64,000 nucleotides of DNA from a virus (taxonomy: Duplodnaviria; Caudoviricetes): the IMG/VR virus record IMGVR_UViG_3300025401_000648; one strand, 5' to 3'. Both the position numbers and the translations under genes were made by a program. Shown piece by piece: positions 4,534 to 40,118 of the stretch. Each line of letters opens with the position of its first letter. Within the stretch, counting starts at the first letter, position 1. The notes under the pieces were generated by a model, which was not told the DNA's origin, searched no databases, and saw only the letters and a list, made by a program, of their open reading frames with translations.

Positions 4534-5991
4534 TCAATGATAGTTAATGGTTGTGCGGTTAAAAAATAACCCGTATACTAGTATTATTACACCAAAAGCA
4601 AGCAGACACAAACTAATTGGATGATGCAGGAGATCTTGAAATTTATACAGTGCCAAAAATTGCCCTGTGGTTAGTTCCAATCTATGACTAAGAGTAAAGC
4701 CTATGATAAAACTGATCCTACTGATTTTGAAATATTTAAAACATAGTCCCACTGCGGTCATTATGGACAATATGGCATAATCCTCCCAGCCGCCTGTATA
4801 GTCGACGCAGGACCAAACAATCAAGGCAATCAAAGGGGCCGCCCAATACTTAAAGGGCACACGGGTTATTGCTGTGGCATATTTTATGAACGCTATACTG
4901 ATAAAAAATGTTAGAACCAAACTTAGCATGAAACCAAAACTCAAGGCATCAAAAAATTTGTGATTTGACAGCAGTGTTTGGCTTCCTAGATCCAATCCCA
5001 CATAGGCCAGTAGGCTCATAACCACTGCTTCAAAAGGAGCCGCAGGTACACCAAACAATACCGTGGGCACATAGGCAGTGGCCTTTTGAGCCAGTGTGGC
5101 ACCCTCAGGACCAATTACACCTTTGACATTGCCTGATCCAAAAGGCATGGTTTCATTTTTGTTTGTGGCCACAGTTTGTCCATAGCTTAACCAATCCACA
5201 ATAGCCCCGCCTATACCAGGCAGTATACCAATTACCCCACCTATGATTCCACCTCTGACACTGATCCATCGGTTCGCCCACCAATCCCCAAATCCTTGTC
5301 GTATTTGTAGCCAATTATCTTGAGATGACTGTAGGTATGTGGTTTTAATTCTAACAGCGTTTATGATTTCAGGCAGTGCCATCAACCCTGCCATGACTGG
5401 AGCAAATTGTATACCATCGGCTAGATAAAACCAGCCACCAGTAAATCGTTCAGCGTTAGTCACAGGATCAGTACCAATCGATCCAGCAAATATACCCAAT
5501 ACCAGTCCCAGTATACCTCTTGCCCAATACTGACTGCTTAAGAAACAGATGCTGGTAACAGCCAAGATTAAAAATGCCCACTGTTCAGGTATACCAAAAC
5601 TCAACACCACATTGGCATAGTAGGGCAATAGTAAAATAGTTAACGTTCCCCATACTACGCCCTGACTCACTGAACTAAACACACTGGCACTCATGGCTCT
5701 GGCAGCTTCACCGCGTTGAGCCATGGGATATCCATCCACCATGGTGGCAGCACTACCCCCGCCTCCTGGTATGTTCATGACCACACTGGCAAACAGATCG
5801 CCCACACTGGCTGATACAACCACGGCAGTGGTAAACACAATAAGACTGTAGGGGTCGCCTCGGAAATAGGATATAAAACTATAGATAGTCAGCAAGGCTG
5901 TGCCGGCACCTGCCACAGGAATAATGCCAAACACAAATCCATATAGAGTGCCCAATAACAGCCAAGGTGTATATTGAATTACAAAGTCCAT
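4534..5991 (-). CDS. tctA: Tripartite tricarboxylate transporter large permease, TctA family
   Basis: 485-aa multi-TM protein; G.VFGIIPVAG, NIPG...SAAT.VDGYPMA.RGEA, GVIGILPGIGG, G...GVIGPE. Confidence 0.85.
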   Translation of the reverse strand: MDFVIQYTPWLLLGTLYGFVFGIIPVAGAGTALLTIYSFISYFRGDPYSLIVFTTAVVVSASVGDLFASVVMNIPGGGGSAATMVDGYPMAQRGEAARAMSASVFSSVSQGVVWGTLTILLLPYYANVVLSFGIPEQWAFLILAVTSICFLSSQYWARGILGLVLGIFAGSIGTDPVTNAERFTGGWFYLADGIQFAPVMAGLMALPEIINAVRIKTTYLQSSQDNWLQIRQGFGDWWANRWISVRGGIIGGVIGILPGIGGAIVDWLSYGQTVATNKNETMPFGSGNVKGVIGPEGATLAQKATAYVPTVLFGVPAAPFEAVVMSLLAYVGLDLGSQTLLSNHKFFDALSFGFMLSLVLTFFISIAFIKYATAITRVPFKYWAAPLIALIVWSCVDYTGGWEDYAILSIMTAVGLCFKYFKISRISFIIGFTLSHRLELTTGQFLALYKFQDLLHHPISLCLLAFGVIILVYGLFFNRTTINYH

Positions 5992-9814: not shown

Positions 9815-10524
9815 ATGATCTCAGGCGGCTCGGGTGGGGGCAAAGGCGCCACAGCGAGATTGAAGTGTATGAAGCGTAGAGGCTTCTTACCACCGTGACG
9901 TGTAAAGCTGTGGGGCACATAGCTGTTGGTAAAGAACAACAAGCCTTCACGGGGAGCAAATATGATACTGCCACTGGCCATGGTGGCATCACGCCCATTG
10001 CGTTCAGGGAGATTGGTCATGTTCTTGCCTGGACGTGGATCGTGTAGCTGTATGATACTGGAATCCTTGGGCACGTCTAGGAAGTAAAAGCCCGATAGTT
10101 GACTGCCATGCCCATGTGTGTGATATTCCATACTGCTGTGCAGGTGATGTTCCTGGCACCATACCTCGGTCATGGCAATCTGTAGATGATCCATGGCATA
10201 GCCCTGACTGTTTAATATGTTCCAGCCAGTCTGTGCCACATAGTCCAAGAAGGGCCGTAGTGCCTCCTCGCCAGTGAGATTGGCAGTTTGATACACGGGG
10301 TATAGGGGATTGAGCTTGGTGCTCTTCCTAGTCAGTGACAGATGCTGTAGACTGATTCCTCGCAATGTGTCCAGGAAATCCTGTTTGACTATGGTATAGG
10401 CTCCGGTGACAAAGTGCTGATGTAGACTCAGTAGATCACCCTGCGGAGGTATTGTGGCCTCGGCTGCAGGTGTTTCACCCATGATGACTTCTGCGGTATG
10501 GTCAGTGGCAGTGGTTGATGTCAA
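9811..10524 (-). CDS. 2OG-Fe(II) oxygenase, TIGR02466-like
   Basis: HTH..SQLSGFYFLDVP, HDPRP, LLFFTNSYVPH, FN. Confidence 0.8.
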   Translation of the reverse strand: MTSTTATDHTAEVIMGETPAAEATIPPQGDLLSLHQHFVTGAYTIVKQDFLDTLRGISLQHLSLTRKSTKLNPLYPVYQTANLTGEEALRPFLDYVAQTGWNILNSQGYAMDHLQIAMTEVWCQEHHLHSSMEYHTHGHGSQLSGFYFLDVPKDSSIIQLHDPRPGKNMTNLPERNGRDATMASGSIIFAPREGLLFFTNSYVPHSFTRHGGKKPLRFIHFNLAVAPLPPPEPPEII

Positions 10525-12073: not shown

Positions 12074-12108
12074 AAAAAAAAGCCCCGTCAACGCCAGCTC
12101 AACGGGGC
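12074..12108 (-). terminator. Rho-independent terminator closing the early minus-strand cluster
   Basis: GCCCCGT/ACGGGGC stem followed by 8 T on the minus strand. Confidence 0.8.
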
Positions 12109-12130
12109 CCAAACGCTCTACGCTAGACTC

Positions 12131-12475: not shown

Positions 12476-12531
12476 ACTAGCTCCTTAGTGTGTTGTGTAA
12501 GTCTATATTATAAGGCCCTTTCGGGCCTTTG

Positions 12532-13359
12532 TCAACCGCAGATTGCGTACTCAGCCAGCTCAGCCCAGTTACGACTGCCTGCCCGGCGGATCTTGACGCA
12601 TTGGATCAGAGTACGCAGGCTCAACTCTTTCACACGGTCCTGTACCTCGGCGATCAAGTCCATGGCGTCCTCTTTGTGGACCTGTTCGTACTCGGGCATG
12701 AACTCACCACTGGTCAGTAGGTGACGCATACGTTCAACCTTTTGCTCTGTGGTCATGCTCAAGTCCACACACAGGCTTCGTGTCACAACGGCTTGATCCA
12801 ATTGTGAGGAGCTCATGTTACTGATGAAGACCACACGACCTTTGAAGAGGAATGAGTTAGGCAGGTCCTCGTCCTTAAAGTCCGCACGCCATGTCACCAC
12901 TCGCTGGCTGTATGAATCCAATGCTGTCTTCAGCAGGCTCAAGCTCACTGGATCTTTGAGTACGCTATCACAGTCGTCGAACACTAAGACTGAGTCCTTG
13001 TTTTCATACAGCAAGCGGAACAGACCCTTTGCTGTACTGTAGCCTTTGACCACTGTATAGCTCTTACGAGCGCGGATCTCACCTGCCTCTTGTAGGGTCA
13101 CGTCCGTGAAGCCCCGGGCTCGGAGTGCTTGGACCACAGTATGGCTCTTGCCAAGTCCACCGGGACCGCAGATGATCACTGACGCTTGATCACCACCAGC
13201 CACCATGTTCACCATGTCAGTGACAAAGCCAAAGCGCTGATTGATTGTGAACTTACTGGGCACCACCACATTCTTGGGTGCTGTATAAGTGATAGAGACT
13301 GGACCGCTACCATCTCTGCGTTGACGGGGTGAACCATCGTTTTTGTAACCTCTTGGCAT
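12532..13359 (-). CDS. AAA+ family ATPase
   Basis: Walker A GPGGLGKS, Walker B VLVFDDCD, FKGRVVFISN, TRS. Confidence 0.85.
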   Translation of the reverse strand: MPRGYKNDGSPRQRRDGSGPVSITYTAPKNVVVPSKFTINQRFGFVTDMVNMVAGGDQASVIICGPGGLGKSHTVVQALRARGFTDVTLQEAGEIRARKSYTVVKGYSTAKGLFRLLYENKDSVLVFDDCDSVLKDPVSLSLLKTALDSYSQRVVTWRADFKDEDLPNSFLFKGRVVFISNMSSSQLDQAVVTRSLCVDLSMTTEQKVERMRHLLTSGEFMPEYEQVHKEDAMDLIAEVQDRVKELSLRTLIQCVKIRRAGSRNWAELAEYAICG

Positions 13360-13397
13360 ACTTGCTCCTAGTGTGTGTAAGTGTATATTATACGGCC

Positions 13398-14114
13398 TTA
13401 GGCCGCTTCTGTCAACCGAATTACGAAGCCTGTGTAGTCTTTTTTGGCACGTCCCTTGGCCTTCAAACCAGCGATGCTGCCTTGGGGATCTAGGAAGCGG
13501 AGGTCATGCTCATCAGCATTGATCACTGGGAGACCCATGTGTTCTTCAGGCAGACGATCAAACACCGCCGCAATATTGAGGCCTTGCTCGATGGCTTTGG
13601 CCACATCCGCATCGTTGCCGTCGGCTTTGGAAAATGTCAAGTGGTAGTTCTTGTACTGGCCGACCTTACGACCCAGGACCTTAGTGTAGTCATAGAACTG
13701 TACAGTAGGGAACAGTTCAAAAATGTTCTTGCCCGCTTCAGCTTCGTACTTCTCCCAGCTCAAGTCTGAGGTACCATTCAAGCGGAACACGGGAGTCAAG
13801 CCCTGCCGTTCTGCGAACTTAATACCCCGACGGATGTCTGCGACCAAGTTGGTCATAAACTCTTCACGATTGAAGAAGAACTCCACTGTCTTGCGGATAC
13901 GAGCCTTTTGGATTGTATTGGTATTCTCACCGCGCTTGAACATGCCACCTCTGCCTGCTGTATTAAGGCAAGCGGATGCGCAACCTGCTGTGGCCTTGGG
14001 GCAGGTGTTGCGCCCGCTAAGGGTGGATGGGGCAAGGTGTAGGATGAATGATAGGTAGCCAAGTTTCGTTCCCTTTTGGATCTTGGGATTCGCTGTACTT
14101 AAGAGCTTGAACAT
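13398..14114 (-). CDS. Gene product 88 (GP88)-like protein
   Basis: ILHLAP, CPKATAGCASACLNTAGRG, RLNGTSD, FYDYTK, DLRFLD. Confidence 0.8.
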   Translation of the reverse strand: MFKLLSTANPKIQKGTKLGYLSFILHLAPSTLSGRNTCPKATAGCASACLNTAGRGGMFKRGENTNTIQKARIRKTVEFFFNREEFMTNLVADIRRGIKFAERQGLTPVFRLNGTSDLSWEKYEAEAGKNIFELFPTVQFYDYTKVLGRKVGQYKNYHLTFSKADGNDADVAKAIEQGLNIAAVFDRLPEEHMGLPVINADEHDLRFLDPQGSIAGLKAKGRAKKDYTGFVIRLTEAA

Positions 14115-14156
14115 AGTGTGTGTCCTTTAGTGTGTGTAAGTCTATATTATAAGGCC

Positions 14157-14378
14157 TTAGCCTAGGCTTGTCAACCATTCCTTAACATCAGGATCAACTT
14201 CCATCATGCGATCAAACTGGGCCGCAACCAGCATGTCACGCATGGCATAGTATTCGGCGCCACCCGCACGGCAGAGATCTTCCACGGCATGCATGGAAGG
14301 CATGCGCCATAGCATCTCGCAGATGAACTTTTGGTTGGGTGTGAGACCAGTGATAGTCAATTCGTCGTCGTCTCGCAT
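14157..14378 (-). CDS. Hypothetical early protein
   Basis: 73-aa ORF, TAATG-coupled to the upstream micro-ORF. Confidence 0.7.
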   Translation of the reverse strand: MRDDDELTITGLTPNQKFICEMLWRMPSMHAVEDLCRAGGAEYYAMRDMLVAAQFDRMMEVDPDVKEWLTSLG

Positions 14379-14467
14379 TAGAATTCTCCCATGACAATCA
14401 TGGCCACGAACATGGCCAACAAGGGTGCTCCTAGGACTACGAACAAGTTGAACAAGGCTGTGAACAT
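14378..14467 (-). CDS. 29-aa hydrophobic micropeptide MFTALFNLFVVLGAPLLAMFVAMIVMGEF (not in ORF track)
   Basis: Own promoter 14496-14524, AAGGAG RBS, stop overlaps next ATG. Confidence 0.7.
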   Translation of the reverse strand: MFTALFNLFVVLGAPLLAMFVAMIVMGEF

Positions 14468-14504
14468 TGGGGCTCCTTTTCTAGTGTATGCCTGTATTAT
14501 ACAG

Positions 14505-14702
14505 TCAATCTATTTGGATGTCAACCAAACGGCCTTCTCTAAAGATAAAGTATTCGTTGATAGGGCGGTTGCTGGATCCACGCCACGACCAAATGCAGTC
14601 GTTGCCGGGCATGAGTTCATATTCCTCGATGCCCCGGGCTTTATAGTGCTCGGTGACCAAGAGCACCTCCAAAGGGTTAAGACGTCCGTCGATCATTACC
14701 AT
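14505..14702 (-). CDS. Hypothetical early protein
   Basis: 65-aa ORF overlapping the upstream gene end. Confidence 0.65.
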   Translation of the reverse strand: MVMIDGRLNPLEVLLVTEHYKARGIEEYELMPGNDCIWSWRGSSNRPINEYFIFREGRLVDIQID

Positions 14703-14908
14703 TCTTTGTGATCTCCCAATGCTTCGTTGTCTCTGTAGCCTGCTGAGTAGGCTGTGATTTCCTCAGCGGTCATGTCTTTGAGCTCTACTAGATCTGAGGT
14801 GCTGGTAGCGCCCCGATAGTAGTGAGGATTGTAGGGTCTACGGTAGTAGCTATCGGCACTGCCCCTATCGTAGGGACCTCCGTGTCGTTGATCATATGAT
14901 GTTGCCAT
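14696..14908 (-). CDS. Conserved small phage protein (HGGPYDRGSADSYY type)
   Basis: Own promoter and RBS; recognisable motif. Confidence 0.75.
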   Translation of the reverse strand: MATSYDQRHGGPYDRGSADSYYRRPYNPHYYRGATSTSDLVELKDMTAEEITAYSAGYRDNEALGDHKEW

Positions 14909-14973
14909 TAGTGCTCCTAGTGTGTGTAAGCCTTAATTATACGGTAAAACCAAAGACCCGTCAACCTCTAGGG

Positions 14974-15084
14974 TTATTGATCTTGTCCTAGTAGGAAATC
15001 AAGTAAGTCTATGTCCAAGCGCCAATGGCTGTCATAGACCTGTGATTCTGCCCACATGAGGAATTCGTCGCTGTACTGGTTCAT
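14974..15084 (-). CDS. 36-aa acidic micro-ORF MNQYSDEFLMWAESQVYDSHWRLDIDLLDFLLGQDQ (not in ORF track)
   Basis: TGATG coupling to upstream gene; fills the gap. Confidence 0.55.
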   Translation of the reverse strand: MNQYSDEFLMWAESQVYDSHWRLDIDLLDFLLGQDQ

Positions 15085-15395
15085 CACATGCTCCAGTAGA
15101 GTTCTGAGCTGGGATCGCAAGCTCTGGGACACTCAGTTTCGATGACTACATCAGCGCCTGTCATCAAGCTCTTCACAGTCTTGTAAGTAGGAAAGTATTC
15201 AAACGAGAATCCGTCCTTGGGCTTATACAAGCTCTTGAGCTCACGGACTTCTCGCTCCATACCTGCTTCGTCCCGCCCCGTGAACTGATAAGTGCCAACG
15301 CATCGTTGTCCTACCTTGTTGCGGCTACCGTACTTGGACACCCTAGTCAAGCGCCGATCTGCCTTGTAGATCCGCAGTGTGTACTCTTGTTTCAT
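15084..15395 (-). CDS. Hypothetical early protein
   Basis: Own promoter and RBS. Confidence 0.75.
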   Translation of the reverse strand: MKQEYTLRIYKADRRLTRVSKYGSRNKVGQRCVGTYQFTGRDEAGMEREVRELKSLYKPKDGFSFEYFPTYKTVKSLMTGADVVIETECPRACDPSSELYWSM

Positions 15396-15438
15396 ATCAG
15401 CTCCTTAGTGTCTATGTGTGTATTATAGCACCATTTGA

Positions 15439-15846
15439 TTAGTCTGTCAACTGTCGATCCTTGAAAGTTTCATCATTGGCTAGAGGCTGTAGGAGATGGA
15501 TCAAGCCACCTTCCATGGCACTGAGTTCAGTCTCGCGCTCTAGTCTGATGTAGTTCAAGGTCCATAGGCTGGGAGTGACATTGAAGTGTTCATTCAACCA
15601 CTGCCAGCCCTTGGGATAGATTTGATGCTTCTTAGGCGCCCCGTGTGCCTTGGGCCAATGACTGTCCTGTCGGCTACGGATGAATCCCTTGCCCACATAG
15701 ATTACTCGTTGTTCTTCATCGGTTAGGATGTAGACTCCACGTAGGGTTCTTGGCAGGCTGGCCCAGTCCTGGAATGGCCGGTGTTCAACACGGCAGTCGA
15801 TGTTAAAGAACTCTTGAACCCTTGTGACTGTGTCTAATACTGTCAT
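15439..15846 (-). CDS. GIY-YIG nuclease family protein
   Basis: GVYIL-x7-IYVGKG, R..SH, E...I..LQP. Confidence 0.75.
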   Translation of the reverse strand: MTVLDTVTRVQEFFNIDCRVEHRPFQDWASLPRTLRGVYILTDEEQRVIYVGKGFIRSRQDSHWPKAHGAPKKHQIYPKGWQWLNEHFNVTPSLWTLNYIRLERETELSAMEGGLIHLLQPLANDETFKDRQLTD

Positions 15847-16046
15847 GCCAACTCCTTAAAGGTTCTGTGTCTAAGATCTATGGTGTAGGGCTTCTTCCAC
15901 AGCTCTACCTGTGTGCTGTCCTGTTTCACATAGCCAATAGCCCGTGCTGTACGTCCCCGAGGCGGCTCTGTGAACACATAGACATGATTGGCTGTGGGAT
16001 GCTCACCCCAGTCTGTGGTCTCTTGAAAAATATAGTGTCGAATCAT
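15843..16046 (-). CDS. Hypothetical early protein
   Basis: ATGA-coupled at both ends. Confidence 0.65.
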   Translation of the reverse strand: MIRHYIFQETTDWGEHPTANHVYVFTEPPRGRTARAIGYVKQDSTQVELWKKPYTIDLRHRTFKELA

Positions 16047-16117
16047 AATTTAGTGAGTATCCATACTTTGATTGCAAATATAGCTGCCACTGCCAGTGTG
16101 ATGTAAAGTGTCTGCAT
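16043..16117 (-). CDS. 24-aa hydrophobic micropeptide MQTLYITLAVAAIFAIKVWILTKL (not in ORF track)
   Basis: Own promoter 16146-16174, AAGGAG RBS, ATGA overlap downstream. Confidence 0.7.
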   Translation of the reverse strand: MQTLYITLAVAAIFAIKVWILTKL

Positions 16118-16183
16118 CTTGGGCTCCTTTTTAGTGTATGTGTTAATTATACTGCCATTTTAGTGAGTTGTCAACCAAAGGTG

Positions 16184-16292
16184 AACCCCGCGGCGTTTCA
16201 CAACGGGCGGGGTTCTATGCCCTTGGGACACTACCCCCTCGGGACTTTTGCTCGGGACACTACCCCCGAGGCTGACCAGCATCGCACTGGTC
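16184..16292. repeat. Structured non-coding element: 14-bp direct repeat plus three stems
   Basis: GGGACACTACCCCC at 16225-16238 and 16254-16267; AACCCCGC/GCGGGGTT (16184-16214); GACCAG/CTGGTC (16274-16292). Confidence 0.7.
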
Positions 16293-16300
16293 GGAGCAAT

Positions 16301-16513
16301 CTATGCTGTCTTAAATTCTTTGCCAACGTAAAAATCAATCAATCTACGTTGGATCATTGTTACCAAATCACCTGCGTCATCGGTCACGATGAATCGTACG
16401 GGGCAATTACCCCAGGTGTGCCTGTTCTGAAACTCAGCAAACCAACGCCTATGATCCCTGTTAGTGGGGTCGAAGGCCACATAGGGCCTTCCCAAATATG
16501 CCAGTTTGCTCAT
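16301..16513 (-). CDS. Hypothetical protein
   Basis: Start refined to MSKLAY, 1 nt after the upstream stop. Confidence 0.7.
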   Translation of the reverse strand: MSKLAYLGRPYVAFDPTNRDHRRWFAEFQNRHTWGNCPVRFIVTDDAGDLVTMIQRRLIDFYVGKEFKTA

Positions 16514-16514
16514 A

Positions 16515-16898
16515 TTAGAAGGATGCTTCTTCCATGTCAGCCAACTGCTTCTCAACTTGAGCCTTGGTAACCTTGGCTGCCTTAATCTTGATACCTTCCA
16601 GTGTGGGCTTGGTCTTCACGGCCTTGGCCACTTTCACTGTCTTAGGTGCTTCACTGCGCTTGTCCAACTCGGCTTCCAATGCTGCCTTGGCCGCAGGGTT
16701 CTTGTCGGCAAAGCCAATCTCCAACAATTTTTGAACTGCCTGCTCCTTGGTCAAAGGCTCAGTGAAGGCTTCAATCTGGACATCAGTGTGTCCGCCCTTC
16801 TCAAGAACCTTAACGCGAAGAGCGTCATTGGCAAATCGTGCTTTGTATTCGCCATTCAGTTTAGAATAGCCAGCGTGTGTAAAAGTCTTAGTAGTCAT
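16515..16898 (-). CDS. Lys/Ala-rich hypothetical early protein
   Basis: Promoter 16953-16981 and AGGA RBS. Confidence 0.75.
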   Translation of the reverse strand: MTTKTFTHAGYSKLNGEYKARFANDALRVKVLEKGGHTDVQIEAFTEPLTKEQAVQKLLEIGFADKNPAAKAALEAELDKRSEAPKTVKVAKAVKTKPTLEGIKIKAAKVTKAQVEKQLADMEEASF

Positions 16899-16988
16899 TT
16901 CAATTTCCTATGTGTGTGTTGATCAATCAGTGGCCCATCCACTGTACTTACTATTATACTGCCTTTTGAATTGGCTGTCAACCATTTT

Positions 16989-17180
16989 TTATGAATTAAC
17001 CGTTTCAAAAGGACTGTATTGTTCCTGGGGGAAAGCATCTTCCCATTCCACATTGACCTGTTCAATCCAATCGTAGACCATGTCAATGGGGCACTCCAAC
17101 ATCATGGCAATGGTCTTGGGACTATAACCTTCAATGTATAGTTGCTCAATGTCGTAGCTCAAATCCTTAATTTCAGTCAT
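16989..17180 (-). CDS. Small HTH-like protein
   Basis: IEQLYIEGYSPKTIAMMLECPIDMV resembles a short helix-turn-helix. Confidence 0.55.
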   Translation of the reverse strand: MTEIKDLSYDIEQLYIEGYSPKTIAMMLECPIDMVYDWIEQVNVEWEDAFPQEQYSPFETVNS

Positions 17181-17388
17181 CGTAGGCCTCCTCGCCCATC
17201 TCTGTTACTCGTTCTTCAACCACAACCAAATCAACAATCCTAGCTGTTTGGTCCACGTCGCTGATACCTTGGAATGCTGTGCGGAAACTTTGGTACTCGG
17301 CCAGGAAGTCAAACACAGCCAATTTGTCCCATTCATCAGGAACCTCAAGCTCCTGTGTCAAAACGGTTTGAACTCGTACTGTTTTCAT
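17173..17388 (-). CDS. Hypothetical protein
   Basis: Coupled overlaps at both ends. Confidence 0.65.
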   Translation of the reverse strand: MKTVRVQTVLTQELEVPDEWDKLAVFDFLAEYQSFRTAFQGISDVDQTARIVDLVVVEERVTEMGEEAYDD

Positions 17389-17861
17389 GCTACCTCCTCT
17401 TCAGCGGCCAAAGCCTCTGCCAACGGCACCAACTGCTTATACAACGCTTCATTGCGTTCATGTGTAGTGCCGCAGTACCAAACACCATCTCGCATGATGT
17501 AGTAGTATTCGCCACAGCAGTTATCAACCTGCTCAAAGAACTCTTCAAATGTGTGTGCTACCTTCCAGCTGACATTCTCTTCGCCGCGATCGCGTCCGTA
17601 AAAGGTACACATATCCTCGGTCAGTTGCTTGAACGCTTCTACTTCCTCTGCGGGCAAGACAAACTGGCTAAAGGCGTGCTTCTCGCCAATGTTAGGACGC
17701 AGGCTACTCAAGTCGCCCAGTGCTACGAGGTTATTGGCTTTGGCAGAGTCGTAGTGCTCTTGTAGGATAGCGCCATTGTGTGCCAAGTAGCCGTCCCAGT
17801 GGCAGTAGACTGACTTAACAATGTCACCGTGCATAATCCCAATACGTGAACGTGTTCCCAT
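17385..17861 (-). CDS. Conserved phage early protein (MGTRSRIG..YCHWDGY type)
   Basis: Recognisable motif; own promoter and RBS. Confidence 0.8.
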   Translation of the reverse strand: MGTRSRIGIMHGDIVKSVYCHWDGYLAHNGAILQEHYDSAKANNLVALGDLSSLRPNIGEKHAFSQFVLPAEEVEAFKQLTEDMCTFYGRDRGEENVSWKVAHTFEEFFEQVDNCCGEYYYIMRDGVWYCGTTHERNEALYKQLVPLAEALAAEEEVA

Positions 17862-17890
17862 GTAGTGCTCCTAGTGTGTGTAAGTGTTAA

Positions 17891-18109
17891 TTATACAGTA
17901 ACTCGATGCCAGCTGTCAACCGAACTAACGGCATCCCAAACAGCTTCGCGCACCGCTGTGTCTGTAGCCTCGCTGTAGACTTCTTCCTTGCTCACAGCAA
18001 TCAACAGGTTCATCACAGTGGCCCAGTTCAGAAAACGCTTGTTGGCCATCTCAACAATGTCGTTGATCACAGCATTGCCAGCATCTGTGAACATTCCATA
18101 GTCTTTCAT
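17891..18109 (-). CDS. Hypothetical early protein
   Basis: Own promoter and RBS; its stop overlaps the next -10 box. Confidence 0.75.
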   Translation of the reverse strand: MKDYGMFTDAGNAVINDIVEMANKRFLNWATVMNLLIAVSKEEVYSEATDTAVREAVWDAVSSVDSWHRVTV

Positions 18110-18170
18110 ATCAGCTCCTAGTGTGTGTAAGTCTTAATTATAACACAGGCCTGAGCCTGTGTCAACTCGT

Positions 18171-18461
18171 TTATGCGTGTTCTTTGTCTTCGACTAAGGT
18201 CAACATGTTAGCGGGCACACGCCAAAGTCCCTGCACGGTCTTGACTGTGACATACTTGATGGCGATCTTTGTAACAAAGCCAGTGATGTTCTGTCCAGTC
18301 TTGTTAGATGTGAAGCTGACGTTGTCGCCAACCATCAAACTACGGATTGTGGTCTTCTGCAGACGCGATTTGGCATACTTGACAGCATCGATGATGCTGG
18401 ACAATTCACTGTTGGTAAACGAACCAAACATGATTGCACTGTTGATTTTTTCGATATCCAT
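18171..18461 (-). CDS. Hypothetical protein with SH3/KOW-like C-terminus
   Basis: VGDNVSF...G.VTKI..K.VTV; own promoter. Confidence 0.7.
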   Translation of the reverse strand: MDIEKINSAIMFGSFTNSELSSIIDAVKYAKSRLQKTTIRSLMVGDNVSFTSNKTGQNITGFVTKIAIKYVTVKTVQGLWRVPANMLTLVEDKEHA

Positions 18462-18513
18462 GATAGCTCCTAGTGTGTGTAAGTCTTAATTATACTGCCC
18501 TTTGGCTGTCTTG

Positions 18514-18741
18514 TCAACCAAAGTACTTGATTAAACCTGCGGCACAGATAGCTATACCCACAACGTTGGTCACAATCTGTGGCTTATTACGTACCCGAAA
18601 GCTCCAAACCAAGTACAGCAGACCCCCTAAGGAGCCTGCCACGATATTCCAAGGATACATGTCCAAGGACATCAAAGTATACATGGCCATGAAGCAGGCA
18701 GTGCCTGCCCACTGGATGATGTCATTAGTCTTCAAGTTCAT
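18514..18741 (-). CDS. Small multi-pass membrane protein
   Basis: Three hydrophobic segments; start refined to MNLKTND (alternative TTG 18735). Confidence 0.65.
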   Translation of the reverse strand: MNLKTNDIIQWAGTACFMAMYTLMSLDMYPWNIVAGSLGGLLYLVWSFRVRNKPQIVTNVVGIAICAAGLIKYFG

Positions 18742-19312
18742 CCTCATTCTCTGCTTCGTATTCAGCCATGCCGTCTGAGATACCAAACATGTCATCCAAA
18801 TCCGCAGGGATCGCATCCTTGACAGTCACACTCGTGTAACCACCAATGTCATAAGTTTCATCACCGTTCTCATCGTGGATTCCACAGAAAGCCATGCCAG
18901 GCTCATAGTAGTAGGCACGCACTGTGAAGCCCTGCTCCATCAGTGCCTCATAGACTCCAGTAGGAGGGCTCCATGCTGAATCAAAGCCAAAGGTAATGCC
19001 CTTGTCATGTTGGGCATCATACTCAACAGTATCGTAGGGATTCACATCCCACTTGGTGCCCCATTCGTTGACACAGAAGTCATACCATGTAGCGTAGCCA
19101 TGCTTCTCACGATTGGCATTCTCTTGCTCTACGAGCTTGATCTGCTCAGGGCTATCATCAGCACCCACGCGGCCAGCCACAATGTGTAGGCTTTCTGGAA
19201 CGGGACGGGCAAAGTTACAGAACTTGCCTTCGTTAATTGCTTCAACCAAAGCATACATCTTGGTCTTGTCTTCGTGGTTGATCTCAACTGTGTTGTTGCA
19301 CCAATTTGGCAT
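18725..19312 (-). CDS. DUF1281/YubB ferredoxin-like domain protein
   Basis: MPNWCNN, EWGTKWD, FDSAWSPP, YYEPG..FCG. Confidence 0.8.
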   Translation of the reverse strand: MPNWCNNTVEINHEDKTKMYALVEAINEGKFCNFARPVPESLHIVAGRVGADDSPEQIKLVEQENANREKHGYATWYDFCVNEWGTKWDVNPYDTVEYDAQHDKGITFGFDSAWSPPTGVYEALMEQGFTVRAYYYEPGMAFCGIHDENGDETYDIGGYTSVTVKDAIPADLDDMFGISDGMAEYEAENEDELED

Positions 19313-19361
19313 ATTCGCTCCTTAAAGTGTGTTAGTGTAAGTGTATATTATACAACCAAAA

Positions 19362-19574
19362 TCATGCTTTGTCAAGCATTCGCATCAATTCATTGTTCAA
19401 AAAGTCCATCTCAGTCCGCTCCACATAGAAGTCTGTGGTGGGATCGTAGTAGGCACCTTCCTGGGGATCGTAATACAAGACACGACCTGAGAAGTTGAAC
19501 GGACCTTCAAGCCCCTTACGGGGGCCATACTTGTCACGCATCCTATCCCCAGTGTCCAAAACGCGATATCCCAT
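19362..19574 (-). CDS. Conserved small phage protein (GLEGPF..YYDP.EG.YYDP type)
   Basis: AAGGAG RBS before ATG 19574; own promoter. Confidence 0.75.
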   Translation of the reverse strand: MGYRVLDTGDRMRDKYGPRKGLEGPFNFSGRVLYYDPQEGAYYDPTTDFYVERTEMDFLNNELMRMLDKA

Positions 19575-19641
19575 TGTCAGCTCCTTTGTTGCTAAGTCTT
19601 TATTATACGATCGGTTAAACCATTTGTCAACCAAAAAAACA

Positions 19642-19716
19642 TGGCGCCGTGGATGGGACTCGAACCCACCTGATACTGATAGACAATCAGTTGCCCTCCC
19701 CGAGGACTACCACGGC
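19642..19716 (-). tRNA. tRNA-Asp (GTC) with encoded CCA
   Basis: GCCGTGG/CCACGGC acceptor stem, ACTGA-TTGTCTA-TCAGT anticodon arm, GTGGG-TTCGAGT-CCCAT T arm. Confidence 0.93.
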
Positions 19717-19792
19717 TTGAATTAGATTGGGCGGGCTGAGCGAGCACCTCGTTTAATGTTCAGCCCTCAGGCCAACACCCTGTAACTAGCTA

Positions 19793-19983
19793 GTTAGAAA
19801 AGAACTAAAGGAACTCCGGACTACTTGCTCTATACCGTCTATAGTGCTAGTGCCTTCGTCATTACTGCCTGCCTTATCCGCCGTTGCTCGAGGCCTTCAT
19901 GCCCTGGATACCAGGTACCCGTCGGTACGCTTCCATCTCTCCAGGCGCCTAGCGGTGTAGGTAACCTTTAATGCTTTCCTAAC
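19793..19983 (-). ncRNA. Candidate structured ncRNA, about 190 nt
   Basis: Own promoter 19997-20025, no RBS/ORF; 5' GTTAGGAAAG-C-ATTAAAGG pairs with 3' CCTTTAGT-T-CTTTTCTAAC; several internal hairpins. Confidence 0.7.
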
Positions 19984-20053
19984 TGTCTATGTCTTTATTA
20001 TAGCACCGGTTTAACCATTTGTCAATCCCGGGCTATAATACCCTTTCTTTCTA

Positions 20054-20125
20054 CTAGGACTTTGGTGCTGTAGGACAGCTCTTAAGTCCGTTCCAGTGCC
20101 ACTTGCGACAATGTGTACATTCCAT
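20054..20125 (-). CDS. 23-aa Cys/His micropeptide MECTHCRKWHWNGLKSCPTAPKS (not in ORF track)
   Basis: Own promoter 20152-20180 and AAGGAG RBS. Confidence 0.65.
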   Translation of the reverse strand: MECTHCRKWHWNGLKSCPTAPKS

Positions 20126-20183
20126 ATGTGCTCCTTAGTGTGTAAGTATGTATTATACTGCCTTTTGGGCGCCTTGTCAACTA

Positions 20184-20393
20184 TTACAACCAGCAGTCGT
20201 CCGCATCTTCCACAGTCTCAGTCTGTCCCCCAATGTAGCCTCCCTGGAAGCCATTGGGGTTTTCCAAAACCAATCGAGTGCGATTGAACCCGCCCTCTGT
20301 GATTCGCACAACGCGACCACTCTGTTCAATGTCTGCTTTGAACGACACCCAGTCGCCTACCCGTACTTCTTGTCCGTCAACGTAGGCTCTCAT
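20184..20393 (-). CDS. Hypothetical SH3-like protein
   Basis: Start refined to MRAYVDG, 1 nt after the upstream stop; VGDWVSFK.DIEQSG. Confidence 0.7.
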   Translation of the reverse strand: MRAYVDGQEVRVGDWVSFKADIEQSGRVVRITEGGFNRTRLVLENPNGFQGGYIGGQTETVEDADDCWL

Positions 20394-20394
20394 A

Positions 20395-20775
20395 TCAGCA
20401 CTCCGGATCAAAGTCATGCCACTCTTGGGCCTCATCGGGTTGGCCATCGCTTTCGCAAAGCCCGTCAAACTCCATCAACTGCTCAAGCGCATCACGCACT
20501 CGCCCACTCTCCGAAGTGTAGAAAGTATACTCGCCCAATGTCGTGCGACCCTCGCCTTCTCGGATGTATTCAAAGCCACCGTAGTAGTCCAAGCGTGAGC
20601 CTGTGTATGACACAATAGTGTCTTCATCTACAAACAACCTTCCGCAACGGCTATCCAAGCCCAAGTGTTCAGCTGGCTCTTGTCGCAGGCCCTGCACGTG
20701 ACGCTCCACTACCTCAGCGATAGCATCCAGCAGGTCTGGTGTTGAATCAAACTGTGTATCTGTAAAGTAACCCAT
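20395..20775 (-). CDS. Hypothetical protein with DGQPDEAQEWHDFDP.C tail
   Basis: Own promoter and RBS; recognisable C-terminal motif. Confidence 0.75.
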   Translation of the reverse strand: MGYFTDTQFDSTPDLLDAIAEVVERHVQGLRQEPAEHLGLDSRCGRLFVDEDTIVSYTGSRLDYYGGFEYIREGEGRTTLGEYTFYTSESGRVRDALEQLMEFDGLCESDGQPDEAQEWHDFDPEC

Positions 20776-20838
20776 TTCAGCTCCTAGTGTGTTAGTGTAA
20801 GTATGTATTATAAGGCCTTTTTAGGGGCCTGTCAATGC

Positions 20839-21045
20839 CTAGCTACAAAATATTTCTTTGCTAAGGATCTTGTCCTCTACCAACTGATAGCAGGCATTTA
20901 GTGTGTAGGTCATGATCAAGTGTGCGTTGGCCCGCTGACTTCGGGGCAAGCTGTCAATCAAAGCCTGGATCTCGCCCAATGATGGGGAGGTGAAAAAATT
21001 GTTACGGGGAATGGGGTTCTGTACCACGTCGTATGTTCCGCTCAT
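20839..21045 (-). CDS. Hypothetical early protein
   Basis: Own promoter and RBS. Confidence 0.7.
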   Translation of the reverse strand: MSGTYDVVQNPIPRNNFFTSPSLGEIQALIDSLPRSQRANAHLIMTYTLNACYQLVEDKILSKEIFCS

Positions 21046-21083
21046 CGCATGCTCCTTAAAGTGTGTTAGTGTATATTATACTA

Positions 21084-21227
21084 TCAATCTGCTAGTGTGT
21101 CAACTATTATTGTCTCAGTAAACTCGTCCTCAACACGCTCTAGTGCTACCTCTAGTGCCTCTGTTTCGTCTGTAGCTTCAACTTCAATCTCAAATTCTCT
21201 TGTAATTTGTACTAAAAATGTTTTCAT
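21084..21227 (-). CDS. 47-aa acidic protein MKTFLVQITREFEIEVEATDETEALE... (not in ORF track)
   Basis: Own promoter 21247-21275, AAGGAG RBS; EVEA.DE.EA pattern similar to DpnD/PcfM-like domains. Confidence 0.7.
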   Translation of the reverse strand: MKTFLVQITREFEIEVEATDETEALEVALERVEDEFTETIIVDTLAD

Positions 21228-21321
21228 CTTCGCTCCTTAAAAACTTATTATAACGCATTCTGTCCAAAATGTCAAATGCGCTATAAAAAGCCCTTACGGG
21301 CTGTAGGGTTATTATATAACA

Positions 21322-21477
21322 TTAATCCACGTAGTAGTCAACCGTTTGCAATAGTGTGCTCATTGCGTTCTCTAACTCGTTAAAGCACTCCAGTTCCACT
21401 AGTTTCTCGCCATCGCATGTTGCTGTTAACAGCATAGCTTCCACTTCCGCTAGTTTAACAAGTATTGCATCTTTCAT
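21322..21477 (-). CDS. Hypothetical 51-aa protein
   Basis: Promoter 21506-21534, AAGGAG RBS before MKDAILV. Confidence 0.7.
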   Translation of the reverse strand: MKDAILVKLAEVEAMLLTATCDGEKLVELECFNELENAMSTLLQTVDYYVD

Positions 21478-21651
21478 TTGTGCTCCTTTTTTAGTGTATG
21501 TGTGTATTATACTGCCAATCCGCCAGCGTGTCAACAAGTTTATTGTAAAGTTTTGTAAACCATGACTGTTGTGAAAATACAACACAAAAAACAGTTGACA
21601 CAGAGCCAGTACTGCGCTATAATACACACTTACACTAAAAGGAGTACTAAA

Positions 21652-21891
21652 ATGGGTCAATACGCTAACACAGTAAACGCATACGCTATGTCCGCCGCTC
21701 GCGCAAAAGTATACACTATGCAAAACACGCTACAGAGCTACGGTCAGACCGCTTATATGCTAAATGTAAGCACAGCCAAGTTCCGTAAGGACATCGAAGC
21801 TAAAAAAGTAAAATTTATTGCCCTATTGGAAAAAGAGCGTGTTGCGCAATTACAACAAGAGCTGGCACGTTTACAAGCAAAAACTGCTTGA
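21652..21891 (+). CDS. Hypothetical early protein
   Basis: Promoter 21595-21623, AAGGAG RBS before MGQYANT. Confidence 0.75.
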   Translation: MGQYANTVNAYAMSAARAKVYTMQNTLQSYGQTAYMLNVSTAKFRKDIEAKKVKFIALLEKERVAQLQQELARLQAKTA

Positions 21892-21943
21892 CATCTCGCC
21901 CCGAAAGGGCGTATAATACACACTTAAACACTAAAGGAGCACT

Positions 21944-22168
21944 ATGTCAAAAGCACTTAACAAACGCATTGCCGACGCCTTCGCTACAATTTACGACCAG
22001 GGCGATAACGGACTAGAGTACATGGACGGCCACACTGCGCTGGACCCGGCTCTAATGGAGCACTTTTACAATGACACAGTAGAGACACTGTCTAAAGCAG
22101 ATCGCACCCGCATGGCCCTAATGTTGGAGACCATTGCCAGCGATATGGACATGGACTTAGAGTGTTAA
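21944..22168 (+). CDS. Hypothetical early protein
   Basis: Promoter 21888-21917, AAGGAG RBS. Confidence 0.75.
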   Translation: MSKALNKRIADAFATIYDQGDNGLEYMDGHTALDPALMEHFYNDTVETLSKADRTRMALMLETIASDMDMDLEC

Positions 22169-23677: not shown

Positions 23678-23875
23678 TTATTTTGTAAATCTTGGCATAC
23701 CTGCCTCAGTGCCTGCATATTGGAAATTATCCAGTAGGGGCACCAGCCGGGCCATGGCCGTGGCATTGTGTCGTTCTATTACTCGATGCTCGCCATCAAT
23801 CAACATGTAATACAAATTAGTTGTACCTTCGTCAACCTGCGGCCCAAAAATATATTCCAAATCTTCTAATATCAT
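23678..23875 (-). CDS. Hypothetical protein
   Basis: ATGA-coupled to the paralog array. Confidence 0.6.
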   Translation of the reverse strand: MILEDLEYIFGPQVDEGTTNLYYMLIDGEHRVIERHNATAMARLVPLLDNFQYAGTEAGMPRFTK

Positions 23876-24117
23876 AGTTCAACTCCAAAATGTTGTTTAA
23901 TCGCTTGTGTGCCCTTGCGTTTCATACTGCCTTGATATGGCACCATTTCTTTCCAAGTATCTACTTCTGCTTCAAACGATTGAGCACATTCTCTCACAAT
24001 CAACTCGGCGAACTTTTCTGAAAATTGTAGCAAGCCTTCATATGTCATGGTGTCCCAGGTGTGACTGAATTCGCTATCTAGTGTCTTTCCCATAAGGGCT
24101 TTAATTCGTTCGTTCAT
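23872..24117 (-). CDS. MNERI/FAELIVREC/HFGVE family paralog 1
   Basis: Start refined to MNERIKALM; shared motifs. Confidence 0.8.
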   Translation of the reverse strand: MNERIKALMGKTLDSEFSHTWDTMTYEGLLQFSEKFAELIVRECAQSFEAEVDTWKEMVPYQGSMKRKGTQAIKQHFGVEL

Positions 24118-24272
24118 AACCCTATCTGCTTTCCGAATAAACAATACACCTCAAACCATCGTGTGGGTGGATTCTCAATGAAGTAAGGATTCACACGGAA
24201 TGTGATTTCCCAATCTCTTGACCACTGAAAATGTCTAGTGCCAAATCTAATATTAAACCAAAGATTGCTCAT
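24114..24272 (-). CDS. 52-aa aromatic-rich protein MSNLWFNIRFGTRHFQW... (not in ORF track)
   Basis: ATGA overlaps at both ends fill the gap exactly. Confidence 0.7.
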   Translation of the reverse strand: MSNLWFNIRFGTRHFQWSRDWEITFRVNPYFIENPPTRWFEVYCLFGKQIGL

Positions 24273-24484
24273 TCTTCAACTCCGAAATGTTCTTTTACAA
24301 ATTTACCAATGCTTTGCCATTTTTCTCTAGTAGCATCAGCATTGTCGGCAACCTCGGCACATTCCCGAACGATCAACTCGGCGAACTTTTCTAATTCGTC
24401 ATTATCAAATACAGTTAGTCCATCATTGTCATTATCAGGATGTTTAAGAGCCTGTAGGGCAAGTTGTTTGGCTTGCTCATTCAT
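24269..24484 (-). CDS. MNERI family paralog 2
   Basis: LEKFAELIVRECA...KEHFGVEE. Confidence 0.8.
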   Translation of the reverse strand: MNEQAKQLALQALKHPDNDNDGLTVFDNDELEKFAELIVRECAEVADNADATREKWQSIGKFVKEHFGVEE

Positions 24485-24687
24485 TATTTGACTCCAAAAT
24501 TTGGATAGTATTCCACAACCTGTTTGATAATAACTGAACCATTTGATTCAACACAGCGGCACACCCGCCCGGTAGAAGGAAATTTCCTACTTACCCAGTC
24601 TGGTTGAACGGTCTCCTGTTCATCAATTTCAAATGACGCATAATACGCCAGCAAATCTTTTTCTTCCGATTCTGTTAGTTTAATCAT
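24484..24687 (-). CDS. Hypothetical protein ending in the family FGVK tail
   Basis: Unrelated body; 3' end TTTTGGAGTCAAATAA shared with 24687..24911. Confidence 0.7.
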   Translation of the reverse strand: MIKLTESEEKDLLAYYASFEIDEQETVQPDWVSRKFPSTGRVCRCVESNGSVIIKQVVEYYPNFGVK

Positions 24688-24911
24688 TATTTGACTCCAA
24701 AATGTTCTTTAATCGTTCTCACACAACCATTAGCGGCACTACGAACATCATTCAAGCGACTGTCATTGGCAATAGCATTAGCACATTCTCTCACAAGCAA
24801 CTCGGCGAATTTTTCTATATCTTCATTAGATTCAACCCAATAGTAACTGTAATCTTTTTGTGATAGAGATAAGCCAGCCTGTTCAGCAAGTTCTTTAATT
24901 CGTTCGTTCAT
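24687..24911 (-). CDS. MNERI family paralog 3
   Basis: MNERIKELAEQAG...FAELLVRECA...KEHFGVK. Confidence 0.8.
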   Translation of the reverse strand: MNERIKELAEQAGLSLSQKDYSYYWVESNEDIEKFAELLVRECANAIANDSRLNDVRSAANGCVRTIKEHFGVK

Positions 24912-25083
24912 CTTTTGTTTTCTTAATGAATAGTTGCGTACCAGCAGGAAGATTCTTAAACATCATGGGCACAGTTCGTTCGTCAGATTGATCGGTATGG
25001 ACTGTATGCCCGTCCCATAATTGTCTAACTTGGGGGAACTTTTCTGTTCCTATCACTCCTGCTATTTCAAATTCTTCGTTCAT
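24895..25083 (-). CDS. Hypothetical protein
   Basis: Starts ATGAACGAA like the family; overlaps both neighbours. Confidence 0.6.
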   Translation of the reverse strand: MNEEFEIAGVIGTEKFPQVRQLWDGHTVHTDQSDERTVPMMFKNLPAGTQLFIKKTKDERTN

Positions 25084-25289
25084 TCTCCAACTCCGAAATG
25101 TTTTTTTATATAATCCGCCGCAATAACAGGAGTGTGCCCGTGTTCGTTTTCAATTTCTACATACACATTTGGAAATAATCCAGCACATTCCCGAACAATC
25201 AACTCGGCGAATGTTTCTAGTAGGTCGCCGCCCTCTTCATAGTGAATTATTCCTGCTTCTAGTATTAATTCCTGAATTCGTTCGTTCAT
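25080..25289 (-). CDS. MNERI family paralog 4
   Basis: MNERIQELILEAG...FAELIVRECA...KKHFGVGE. Confidence 0.8.
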   Translation of the reverse strand: MNERIQELILEAGIIHYEEGGDLLETFAELIVRECAGLFPNVYVEIENEHGHTPVIAADYIKKHFGVGE

Positions 25290-25498
25290 TGTTCAACTCC
25301 GAAATGTTGTTGGATTCTGCGGGCGAGGATTCCCACCAGCTGGGGAGGTTCTGCTTGGGGTGGATTGGTCTTTACCCCAGTTACCACCTGTTCCACGCAC
25401 GCCGCCACAACCAGTTCAGCTAGCCTTTGGGCACGTCCTGCCATTTCAGGTGCCGCATAGCCTGCTTGAAGCATCAACTGTCTTAATCTAGGGTTCAT
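25286..25498 (-). CDS. MNERI family paralog 5 (divergent)
   Basis: MNPRLRQLMLQAG...LAELVVAAC...QHFGVEQ. Confidence 0.75.
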   Translation of the reverse strand: MNPRLRQLMLQAGYAAPEMAGRAQRLAELVVAACVEQVVTGVKTNPPQAEPPQLVGILARRIQQHFGVEQ

Positions 25499-25537
25499 CG
25501 GGGCCTTTCTTTCTCTATATATGTGTGTAAAAACTAT

Positions 25538-25566
25538 ATTATACAGTGAGCTAGGGCCTTTGTCAA
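25538..25566 (-). promoter_or_regulatory. sigma70 promoter driving the paralog operon
   Basis: TTGACA-17 nt-TATAAT. Confidence 0.85.
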
Positions 25567-31810: not shown

Positions 31811-31839
31811 ATTATACTGCCAAAATCAAAATTTGTCAA
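31811..31839 (-). promoter_or_regulatory. sigma70 promoter
   Basis: TTGACA-17 nt-TATAAT. Confidence 0.8.
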
Positions 31840-40062: not shown

Positions 40063-40087
40063 CTTTTTTATCAAATGATCGTATAAT
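40059..40087 (+). promoter_or_regulatory. sigma70 promoter for DNA ligase
   Basis: TTGACT-17 nt-TATAAT; the upstream stop TGA lies within the -35 box. Confidence 0.75.
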
Positions 40088-40118
40088 ATTAGTATCACAG
40101 TTAGACACAGGACAAACT

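Follow-up and report, generated by a model that had tools for sequence, protein, structure and literature searches.

The stretch of viral DNA analysed here, 64,000 nucleotides (nt) long and referred to below as the window, comes from a member of the Caudoviricetes (Duplodnaviria; IMG/VR record IMGVR_UViG_3300025401_000648) and contains at 12507-21917 a dense array of near-perfect sigma70 promoters, most of which are followed by a leader of similar composition. We consider it probable that the array consists of early promoter/leader cassettes resembling the promoter early stem-loops (PeSLs) of T4-type phages, located in the hyperplastic early region of a large uncultured freshwater phage, and that these cassettes double as short-homology crossover points. 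The kind of system is thus already described, and no new kind of system is revealed.

The array is real and far beyond chance. The pattern TTGACR-N16-18-TATAAT had 23 matches in the window, whereas 100 dinucleotide-preserving shuffles gave 0.08 on average and never more than 2. Of the 23 matches, 21 fall within 12507-21917 (19 minus-strand, two plus-strand), and the two remaining ones, both on the minus strand, are at 25538-25566 and 31811-31839. All 12 consensus positions were present in 20 of the 21 array promoters and 11 in the other (14936, TTGACG), with a spacing of 17 bp in 19 and 18 bp in two. Every match points in the same direction as the genes, and the plus- and minus-strand promoters of the array diverge at about 21.56 kb, across a 60-bp control region. 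The promoter numbers and the point of divergence given in an earlier note on this DNA, which had been made from the sequence alone, were borne out by this count against shuffled sequences. The array promoters and the terminator that closes the array are as follows (MFE, minimum free energy; SD, Shine-Dalgarno sequence; ORF, open reading frame; ncRNA, non-coding RNA).

12080-12110, minus strand: strong intrinsic terminator, a 12-bp stem then a T-run, closing the array after gene 12475-12131
12507-12535, minus strand: promoter with a strong GC hairpin in the spacer (MFE -13.5 kcal/mol, z -6.1); the TGA of the upstream AAA gene is in the -35
13387-13415, minus strand: promoter with a spacer hairpin (z -3.3); the spacer contains the end, RLTEAA*, of the upstream GP88-like gene
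14146-14174, minus strand: promoter; the upstream gene's end WLTSLG* is in the spacer
14496-14524, minus strand: promoter sitting within the 3' end of gene 14702-14505
14936-14964, minus strand: promoter with the TTGACG -35
15422-15450, minus strand: promoter; the upstream gene's end QLTD* is in the spacer
16146-16174, minus strand: promoter with a hairpin-rich 125-nt intergenic region directly 5'
16953-16981, minus strand: promoter with an atypical structured leader of ~55 nt; its spacer equals that of the orthologous promoter of the relative G1 at 12 of 17 positions
17890-17919, minus strand: promoter with an 18-bp spacer, wholly within the upstream gene, whose stop TAA (17891) is in the -10 hexamer
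18137-18165, minus strand: promoter with an 8-10 bp spacer hairpin (MFE -16.3 kcal/mol, z -5.9)
18489-18517, minus strand: promoter; the TGA of the upstream membrane-like gene is in the -35
19347-19375, minus strand: promoter; the upstream stop is in the spacer
19602-19630, minus strand: promoter C_a; with its leader (19578-19632) identical to L048:1961-2013 at 53 of 53 positions
19997-20025, minus strand: promoter C_b, driving an ncRNA and tRNA-Asp; no SD or ORF; spacer identical in L048 at 17 of 17 positions
20152-20180, minus strand: promoter driving a 23-codon ORF; homology to L048 starts at the SD
20807-20835, minus strand: promoter with a spacer hairpin (z -3.7)
21075-21103, minus strand: promoter; the upstream stop is in the spacer
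21247-21275, minus strand: promoter with a short leader and the terminator 21289-21302 upstream
21506-21534, minus strand: first minus-strand promoter, at the divergent control region
21595-21623, plus strand: promoter driving gene 21652-21891
21888-21917, plus strand: promoter with an 18-bp spacer and hairpin, driving gene 21944-22168; the upstream TGA is in the -35

When the genes were curated by hand, the 19 minus-strand promoters were found to serve 28 protein genes and one RNA module. The frequency is therefore about one promoter per 1.5 genes and not, as had been noted earlier, about one per gene; a unit of the array comprises one to three small genes behind one cassette. The intergenic DNA of the array is almost all cassette, and the array contains a single canonical terminator (21289-21302). 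In 10 of the 21 cases the promoter overlaps the 3' end of the upstream coding sequence (CDS), in agreement with the earlier note, whose readings of the stop TGA inside the TTGACA -35 (12532, 18514 and 21889) and of the protein tails RLTEAA, WLTSLG and QLTD were verified. The upstream stop lies in the spacer at 13398, 14157, 14505, 15439, 19362 and 21084.

Alignment on the hexamers gave the cassette consensus tgG-TTGACA-(9 free)-aa.GGc.g-TATAAT-A.A.ACTTACAC... An AGGAG-type SD and an ATG follow 19-34 nt past the -10 in 19 of the 21 cassettes, in which the stretch from the -10 to the SD/ATG is CA-rich with 0-3 G residues. The shared leader described in the earlier note holds as far as the CA-rich leader, AGGAG and ATG of these 19 are concerned, but the exact string quoted for it, ACTTACAC(AC)ACTA(A)GGAG, occurs in only five of the 21, the rest being CA-rich variants. 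The two cassettes without a standard leader are 16953, whose leader is structured and ~55 nt long, and 19997, the promoter of an RNA gene. Upstream of the -35, 12 nt are unconserved except for tgG and are coding in half of the cases; an extended -10 (TGn) is present in three of the 21 promoters. All window cassettes have a spacer signature, an A/T tract then GG at -17/-16, in common with those of several phages (G1, L007, L016 and L045), and TGG or TGC directly before the -35 is likewise conserved in the cassettes of the window and these four. The spacer signature is absent from the promoters of RB49 and PA5oct. Spacer folds were clearly more stable than shuffled sequences in 5-6 of the 21 cassettes (12507, 13387, 18137, 20807, 21888 and perhaps 18489/16953), with a mean z of -1.35. 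By analogy with PeSLs, we infer that these hairpin spacers, together with the U-rich transcript of the -10, may act as attenuators.

Relatives were found by scanning IMG/VR and the JGI metagenomes with the AAA protein encoded in the array.

12532-13359, minus strand: AAA-type ATPase, a homologue of T4 NrdC.10 (phrog_1250); the anchor gene for finding relatives

The closest contig, G1 (= L002, 36 kb), encodes an AAA protein that is 80% identical, and its first 15.3 kb contain 26 exact promoters with a leader as in the window. More distant relatives have arrays too, with the same spacer signature and a leader flavour of their own in each; among these, G003-G005 encode the T4 capsid protein Gp23. 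The L083-L092 contigs have only 65-82% nucleotide identity to G1. A common pool of small genes occurs in differing same-strand orders in the window, G1, L048, L045, L040, L120, L114 and L141, and both gene content and gene order differ from the window in all 11 relatives compared. The promoter-led units 19574 / 19312+18726 / 18461 are in reverse order in G1, and the homologue of 21045 adjoins the AAA gene in G1, L086 and L141. The adjacency of neighbours was kept in at least one of the 11 relatives at five of 10 promoter-less junctions versus one of 16 promoter-bearing junctions (Fisher's exact test, one-sided p=0.018); when only junctions with both genes present in some relative were counted, the figures were 5/5 versus 1/6. 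The alignment of relatives proposed in the earlier note thus gave a gene order that is not fixed and breakpoints that fall in the cassettes rather than avoiding them.

The evidence that bears most directly on crossovers is a module shared with L048.

19580-20129, minus strand: exchanged module of 550 nt, comprising a tiny ORF, C_b, the ncRNA, tRNA-Asp and C_a
19642-19716, minus strand: tRNA-Asp (GTC)

Window positions 19580-20158 were 94.5% identical to L048:1985-2567, and all other segments shared with L048 were 68-72% identical. The homology begins at the SD before the 23-codon ORF, continues through C_b, the ncRNA and tRNA-Asp, and stops in the -35 of the next promoter. When compared with the circularly permuted L048:1963-2520, the module was identical at 539 of 551 positions (97.8%), and its flanks were 48.6% and 49.7% identical, which is the level of unrelated DNA (49.7%). 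An identical 53-nt cassette is located 3' of the tRNA in the window (19578-19632) and 5' of the tiny ORF in L048, and the module junctions fall on strings shared between the partners, a 7-nt SD and a 9-nt -35. The window and L048 thus appear, from their sequences, to hold the same 'circle', opened within the cassette at the SD in the window and at the -35 in L048. Such a circular permutation needs cassette-by-cassette crossovers, via a circular or tandem-duplication intermediate. The spacer type of C_a and C_b is found in five of the eight minus-strand (array-strand) promoters of the L048 contig and in no other window cassette, suggesting import from an L048-like donor.

In contigs assembled from public runs, the L048-type junction (20129->19580, side 53; seven shared letters, the SD) reached a depth of 832 in one lake metagenome and 227 in another; in the same two metagenomes the window phage had a single-contig depth of roughly 5-60. 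No other joint was used, and this one served solely to document the L048-type arrangement. Other joints, mostly with sides of 20-35 nt, derive from cassettes of more abundant phages and were not counted as variants. A joint that 'goes back 550' was rejected as a mini-circle because its depth is that of the other, abundant phage and indicates a genome arrangement, and contig breaks at cassettes were not taken as biology because they stem from repeats in the assembly graph.

Between promoter 19997-20025 and tRNA-Asp, the module contains an untranslated RNA of ~270 nt (19717-19990, minus strand) that matched no Rfam family at the gathering score. The 3' half of this RNA and the tRNA are 100% identical to L048 over 226 nt, and the RNA is probably a structured ncRNA co-transcribed with tRNA-Asp. 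The 23-codon ORF (20054-20125, minus strand) is Cys-rich (CxxC...C), has its own perfect promoter and SD, is 91% identical in amino acid (aa) sequence in L048, and travels with the RNA module.

Chimeric cassettes were found at two further promoters. The head of 14936-14964 recurs in L040 and L120 with one or two spacer mismatches, and three different leaders and genes follow it across the three phages; the head of 14496-14524, which is part of the coding end of the upstream gene, likewise precedes a different leader and gene in each of the window, L040 and L045. In both chimeras the break is the -10/leader boundary. Crossover sites that differ in this way (SD, -35 and -10/leader boundary) fit short-homology recombination and not a site-specific system. 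Taken with the permuted module and the adjacency bias, the chimeric heads support the suggestion of the earlier note that the promoter/leader acts as a recombination site. As a separate observation, a motif of the TAACCCTAG type that contains stops in two frames is located directly 5' of the -35 at 14965-14978; it is recurrent, and motifs of this type mark one cassette sub-family common to the window, L045, L040, L120 and G1.

The likeness to PeSLs drawn in the earlier note is apt, and its description of them was accurate (PMC2839356, PMC4122927). PeSLs have been described in the phages RB49/phi1, T4/PST and KVP40/nt-1 (Arbiol et al. 2010, PMC2839356; Comeau et al. 2014, PMC4122927). In RB49/phi1 they are near-perfect sigma70 promoters with a stem-loop that is mostly located in the -35/-10 interval or overlaps the -10, and they have been shown to be active as promoters and terminators (PMC2839356). 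Their 3' end carries the SD and start codon of the gene downstream. They are clustered before ORFans in hyperplastic regions and are crossover points; the crossovers were placed in the interval from the -10 to the ATG, and inverse PCR revealed mini-circles (PMC2839356, PMC4122927). The window array is alike in its near-perfect sigma70 promoters with the SD and ATG at the 3' end, in its clustering upstream of ORFans in a hyperplastic early region, and in gene gain, loss and replacement bounded by cassettes. The permuted module is what a mini-circle intermediate would predict, and is known here from assembled contigs; RB49 also has the spacer-hairpin design, several of its hairpins being GGGG...CCCC. 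The array differs in density, with 21 exact-consensus sites in 9.4 kb versus 22 (of ~51 annotated PeSLs) in the 164 kb of RB49, and in position, since 10 of the 21 window promoters are inside the upstream CDS whereas PeSLs follow the stop in an AT-rich spacer. In addition, just 5-6 of the 21 window cassettes have a clear hairpin, the GG(-17/-16) spacer signature and the CA-rich leader are specific to the clade of the window phage, and the PeSL carriers are T4-type phages, to which the window phage may or may not belong.

On the reading favoured here, unmodified host RNA polymerase would fire all units simultaneously right after DNA entry, and the unstructured leader and strong SD would allow efficient translation. 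Because canonical terminators are nearly absent in the array, transcription would probably build up along it until the terminator at 12080-12110. The comparison of relatives shows promoter-led modules to have been moved, replaced and exchanged between co-occurring phages via crossovers at the SD, the -35 or the -10/leader boundary, with each junction leaving a working chimeric cassette. This would be the PeSL mechanism in a denser and more compact form, in which roughly every second promoter is built into the final codons of the gene before it.

Alternatively, the cassettes may be purely regulatory, alike through the demands made on a promoter and leader, with changes of order arising by illegitimate recombination and selection for expressed genes. 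We regard this as unlikely, although several observations agree with it or count against the reading favoured here. Exact identity between cassettes extended over 9 nt at the median and 30 nt at most and reached at least 20 nt in only five of 210 pairs, so that shared exact stretches are mostly below 20 nt and the ~60-bp recombination homology put forward in the earlier note is not supported. Between the window and G1, the spacers of orthologous promoters were as unlike as those of random pairs, and most cassettes therefore evolve freely and are not homogenised. Other than in the hairpin cassettes, the fold stability of the spacers was not distinguishable from that of shuffles. Because nearly all intergenic DNA is cassette, viable order changes must break in or beside one, and because promoter-less genes need a promoter in front of them, selection alone could give the adjacency bias. 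One indel, gene 17388-17173, which is missing in G1, L045 and L120, is not flanked by a cassette. The AAA-protein scans brought up no relative closer than 80% aa, whereas a clean event-by-event count like that of RB49/phi1 would take a relative at least 95% identical. The use of the promoters and their early timing we infer from the sequence. What argues against a purely regulatory origin is that the 550-nt module is circularly permuted between two phages with the identical cassette on opposite sides, that its junctions lie on the 7-nt and 9-nt strings shared by the partners, and that three heads were joined to different tails exactly at the -10/leader boundary with the cassettes intact, where random joints would often have destroyed the promoter.

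A further reading concerns the conserved TGG, the A/T tract with GG(-17/-16) and the frequent GGCC/GGTTnAACC spacer dyads, which might together form a recognition element for a specific factor; we give this little credence. Candidates would be a polymerase modifier that is injected, a repressor for early shut-off or a helper that directs recombination to the cassettes. If true, gene shuffling or regulation in the array would be actively targeted, and the array would not be a passive by-product of strong promoters.

It is very improbable that the array is mainly an RNA-polymerase sink that withholds host holoenzyme, with the small genes secondary. Perfect -35 and -10 boxes would give maximal binding, and the early promoters of T4 outcompete host promoters (PMC2988021). 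Nineteen of the 21 sites, however, are precisely coupled to an SD and an ORF, and many such ORFs are kept in relatives. Cells contain thousands of RNA polymerase molecules, and ~21 sites per infecting genome are few against this pool. The sequence gives nothing to tell a sink from ordinary strong promoters, and sequestration of polymerase by 21 sites, which the earlier note had raised, is speculation.

A dedicated, integron-like site-specific system, in which a recombinase recognises a sub-site of the cassette (the spacer dyad or the GG signature), is least credible of all: the spacer signature with TGG before the -35 is conserved across several phages, several spacers are palindromic and Arbiol et al. 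speculated about a protein that targets the stem-loop (PMC2839356), but the palindromes are not universal, crossovers occurred at three different sub-sites, and no integrase or other recombinase was found among the ~50 window ORFs scanned. With integrons the array has in common a row of small, same-strand, exchangeable genes; it differs in having no integrase among those ORFs and neither an attI nor an attC-like site in the array, in a promoter for each unit versus a single Pc, and in its variable junction sub-sites. The array is not a member of the integron family, and the term integron-like used in the earlier note is not supported.

Two other promoter systems were compared. T4 has many, very strong host-sigma70 early promoters that fire immediately on infection and outcompete host promoters (PMC2988021), and the window resembles T4 in its many strong host-sigma70 promoters and in conserved positions beyond the hexamers. 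T4 early promoters have UP/-35/TGn/-10 elements with a GTTTAC-type -35, whereas the window has an exact TTGACA -35, TGn in only three of 21, and upstream DNA that is often coding and not an A/T-rich UP element, which differs from the 'uber' promoter design. PA5oct has 32 putative promoters (TTGAC and TATAATA motifs) around transcription start sites defined by RNA-Seq, and its growth is rifampicin-sensitive (PMC7318152). It has the closest helicase (51% aa), depends on host RNA polymerase and has promoters with the same -10 followed by A, but its 12 exact sites are scattered over 287 kb and it has no shared-leader array. RsoM2USA has zero exact promoter sites.

A near-identity search of the array region against 50,697 phage records gave no match, and the sequence was found with hardly any differences in 24 freshwater metagenome runs of 2017 but in no RNA run. 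In the cultured-phage collection, the best matches of the DnaB-type helicase were the jumbo phages PA5oct and Atu_ph07 (51% aa). The window also encodes an ATP-dependent ligase and many collagen-like tail-fibre genes. Within the array, a second gene with a family match adjoins the AAA gene.

13398-14114, minus strand: GP88-family protein (PF17338)

Most array genes have no family match (ORFans), and the earlier note's description of them as host-takeover genes finds no footing, since nearly all lack an assignable function. Gene 15846-15439 had been considered as a GIY-YIG gene on the basis of a motif-like stretch seen by eye, but it had no Pfam match even at E=1, and this lead was dropped. Outside the array, 4534-5991 (minus strand) encodes a TctA-family tripartite tricarboxylate transporter subunit (PF01970, E 6e-81); a phage-borne TctA gene is an unusual auxiliary metabolic gene and may give a hint at the host group. 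At 38614-40062 (plus strand), a gene for a B12-binding radical-SAM protein adjoins that of the ATP-dependent DNA ligase (40059-41432).

Several further features of control regions were observed. The divergent control region (21535-21594) contains an inverted repeat, TGTTGT..ACAACA, which is a possible operator. The intergenic DNA just 5' of promoter 16146-16174 (16183-16292, minus strand) has a hairpin unit in two direct copies and a GC stem of 9 bp. The leader at 16899-16952 (minus strand) is the only long one in the array and precedes the conserved gene 16898-16515; its G1 counterpart (~9913-9973) is long too, and this leader may be a translational operator. One of the two promoters outside the array heads a different kind of gene set.

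25538-25566, minus strand: outlying perfect promoter, the sole head of an operon of about eight genes (25498-23678)

The eight small genes of this region (23678-25566, minus strand) are paralogous and stand under a single promoter, in contrast to the adjoining design with one promoter per unit.

The remaining interest of the array lies in the natural example of circular permutation and in the clade-specific spacer signature. One 550-nt RNA module opened at two cassette points in co-occurring phages is a natural example of what a circular or tandem intermediate predicts, and the signature would provide a testable handle on promoter recognition in a freshwater host. The cassettes would also represent a ready-made set of very strong, compact promoter/leader parts. 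If the cassettes are PeSL-like crossover points, as we consider probable, the PeSL idea, so far based on three pairs of cultured T4-like phages, would also apply to large freshwater phages in a wild community.

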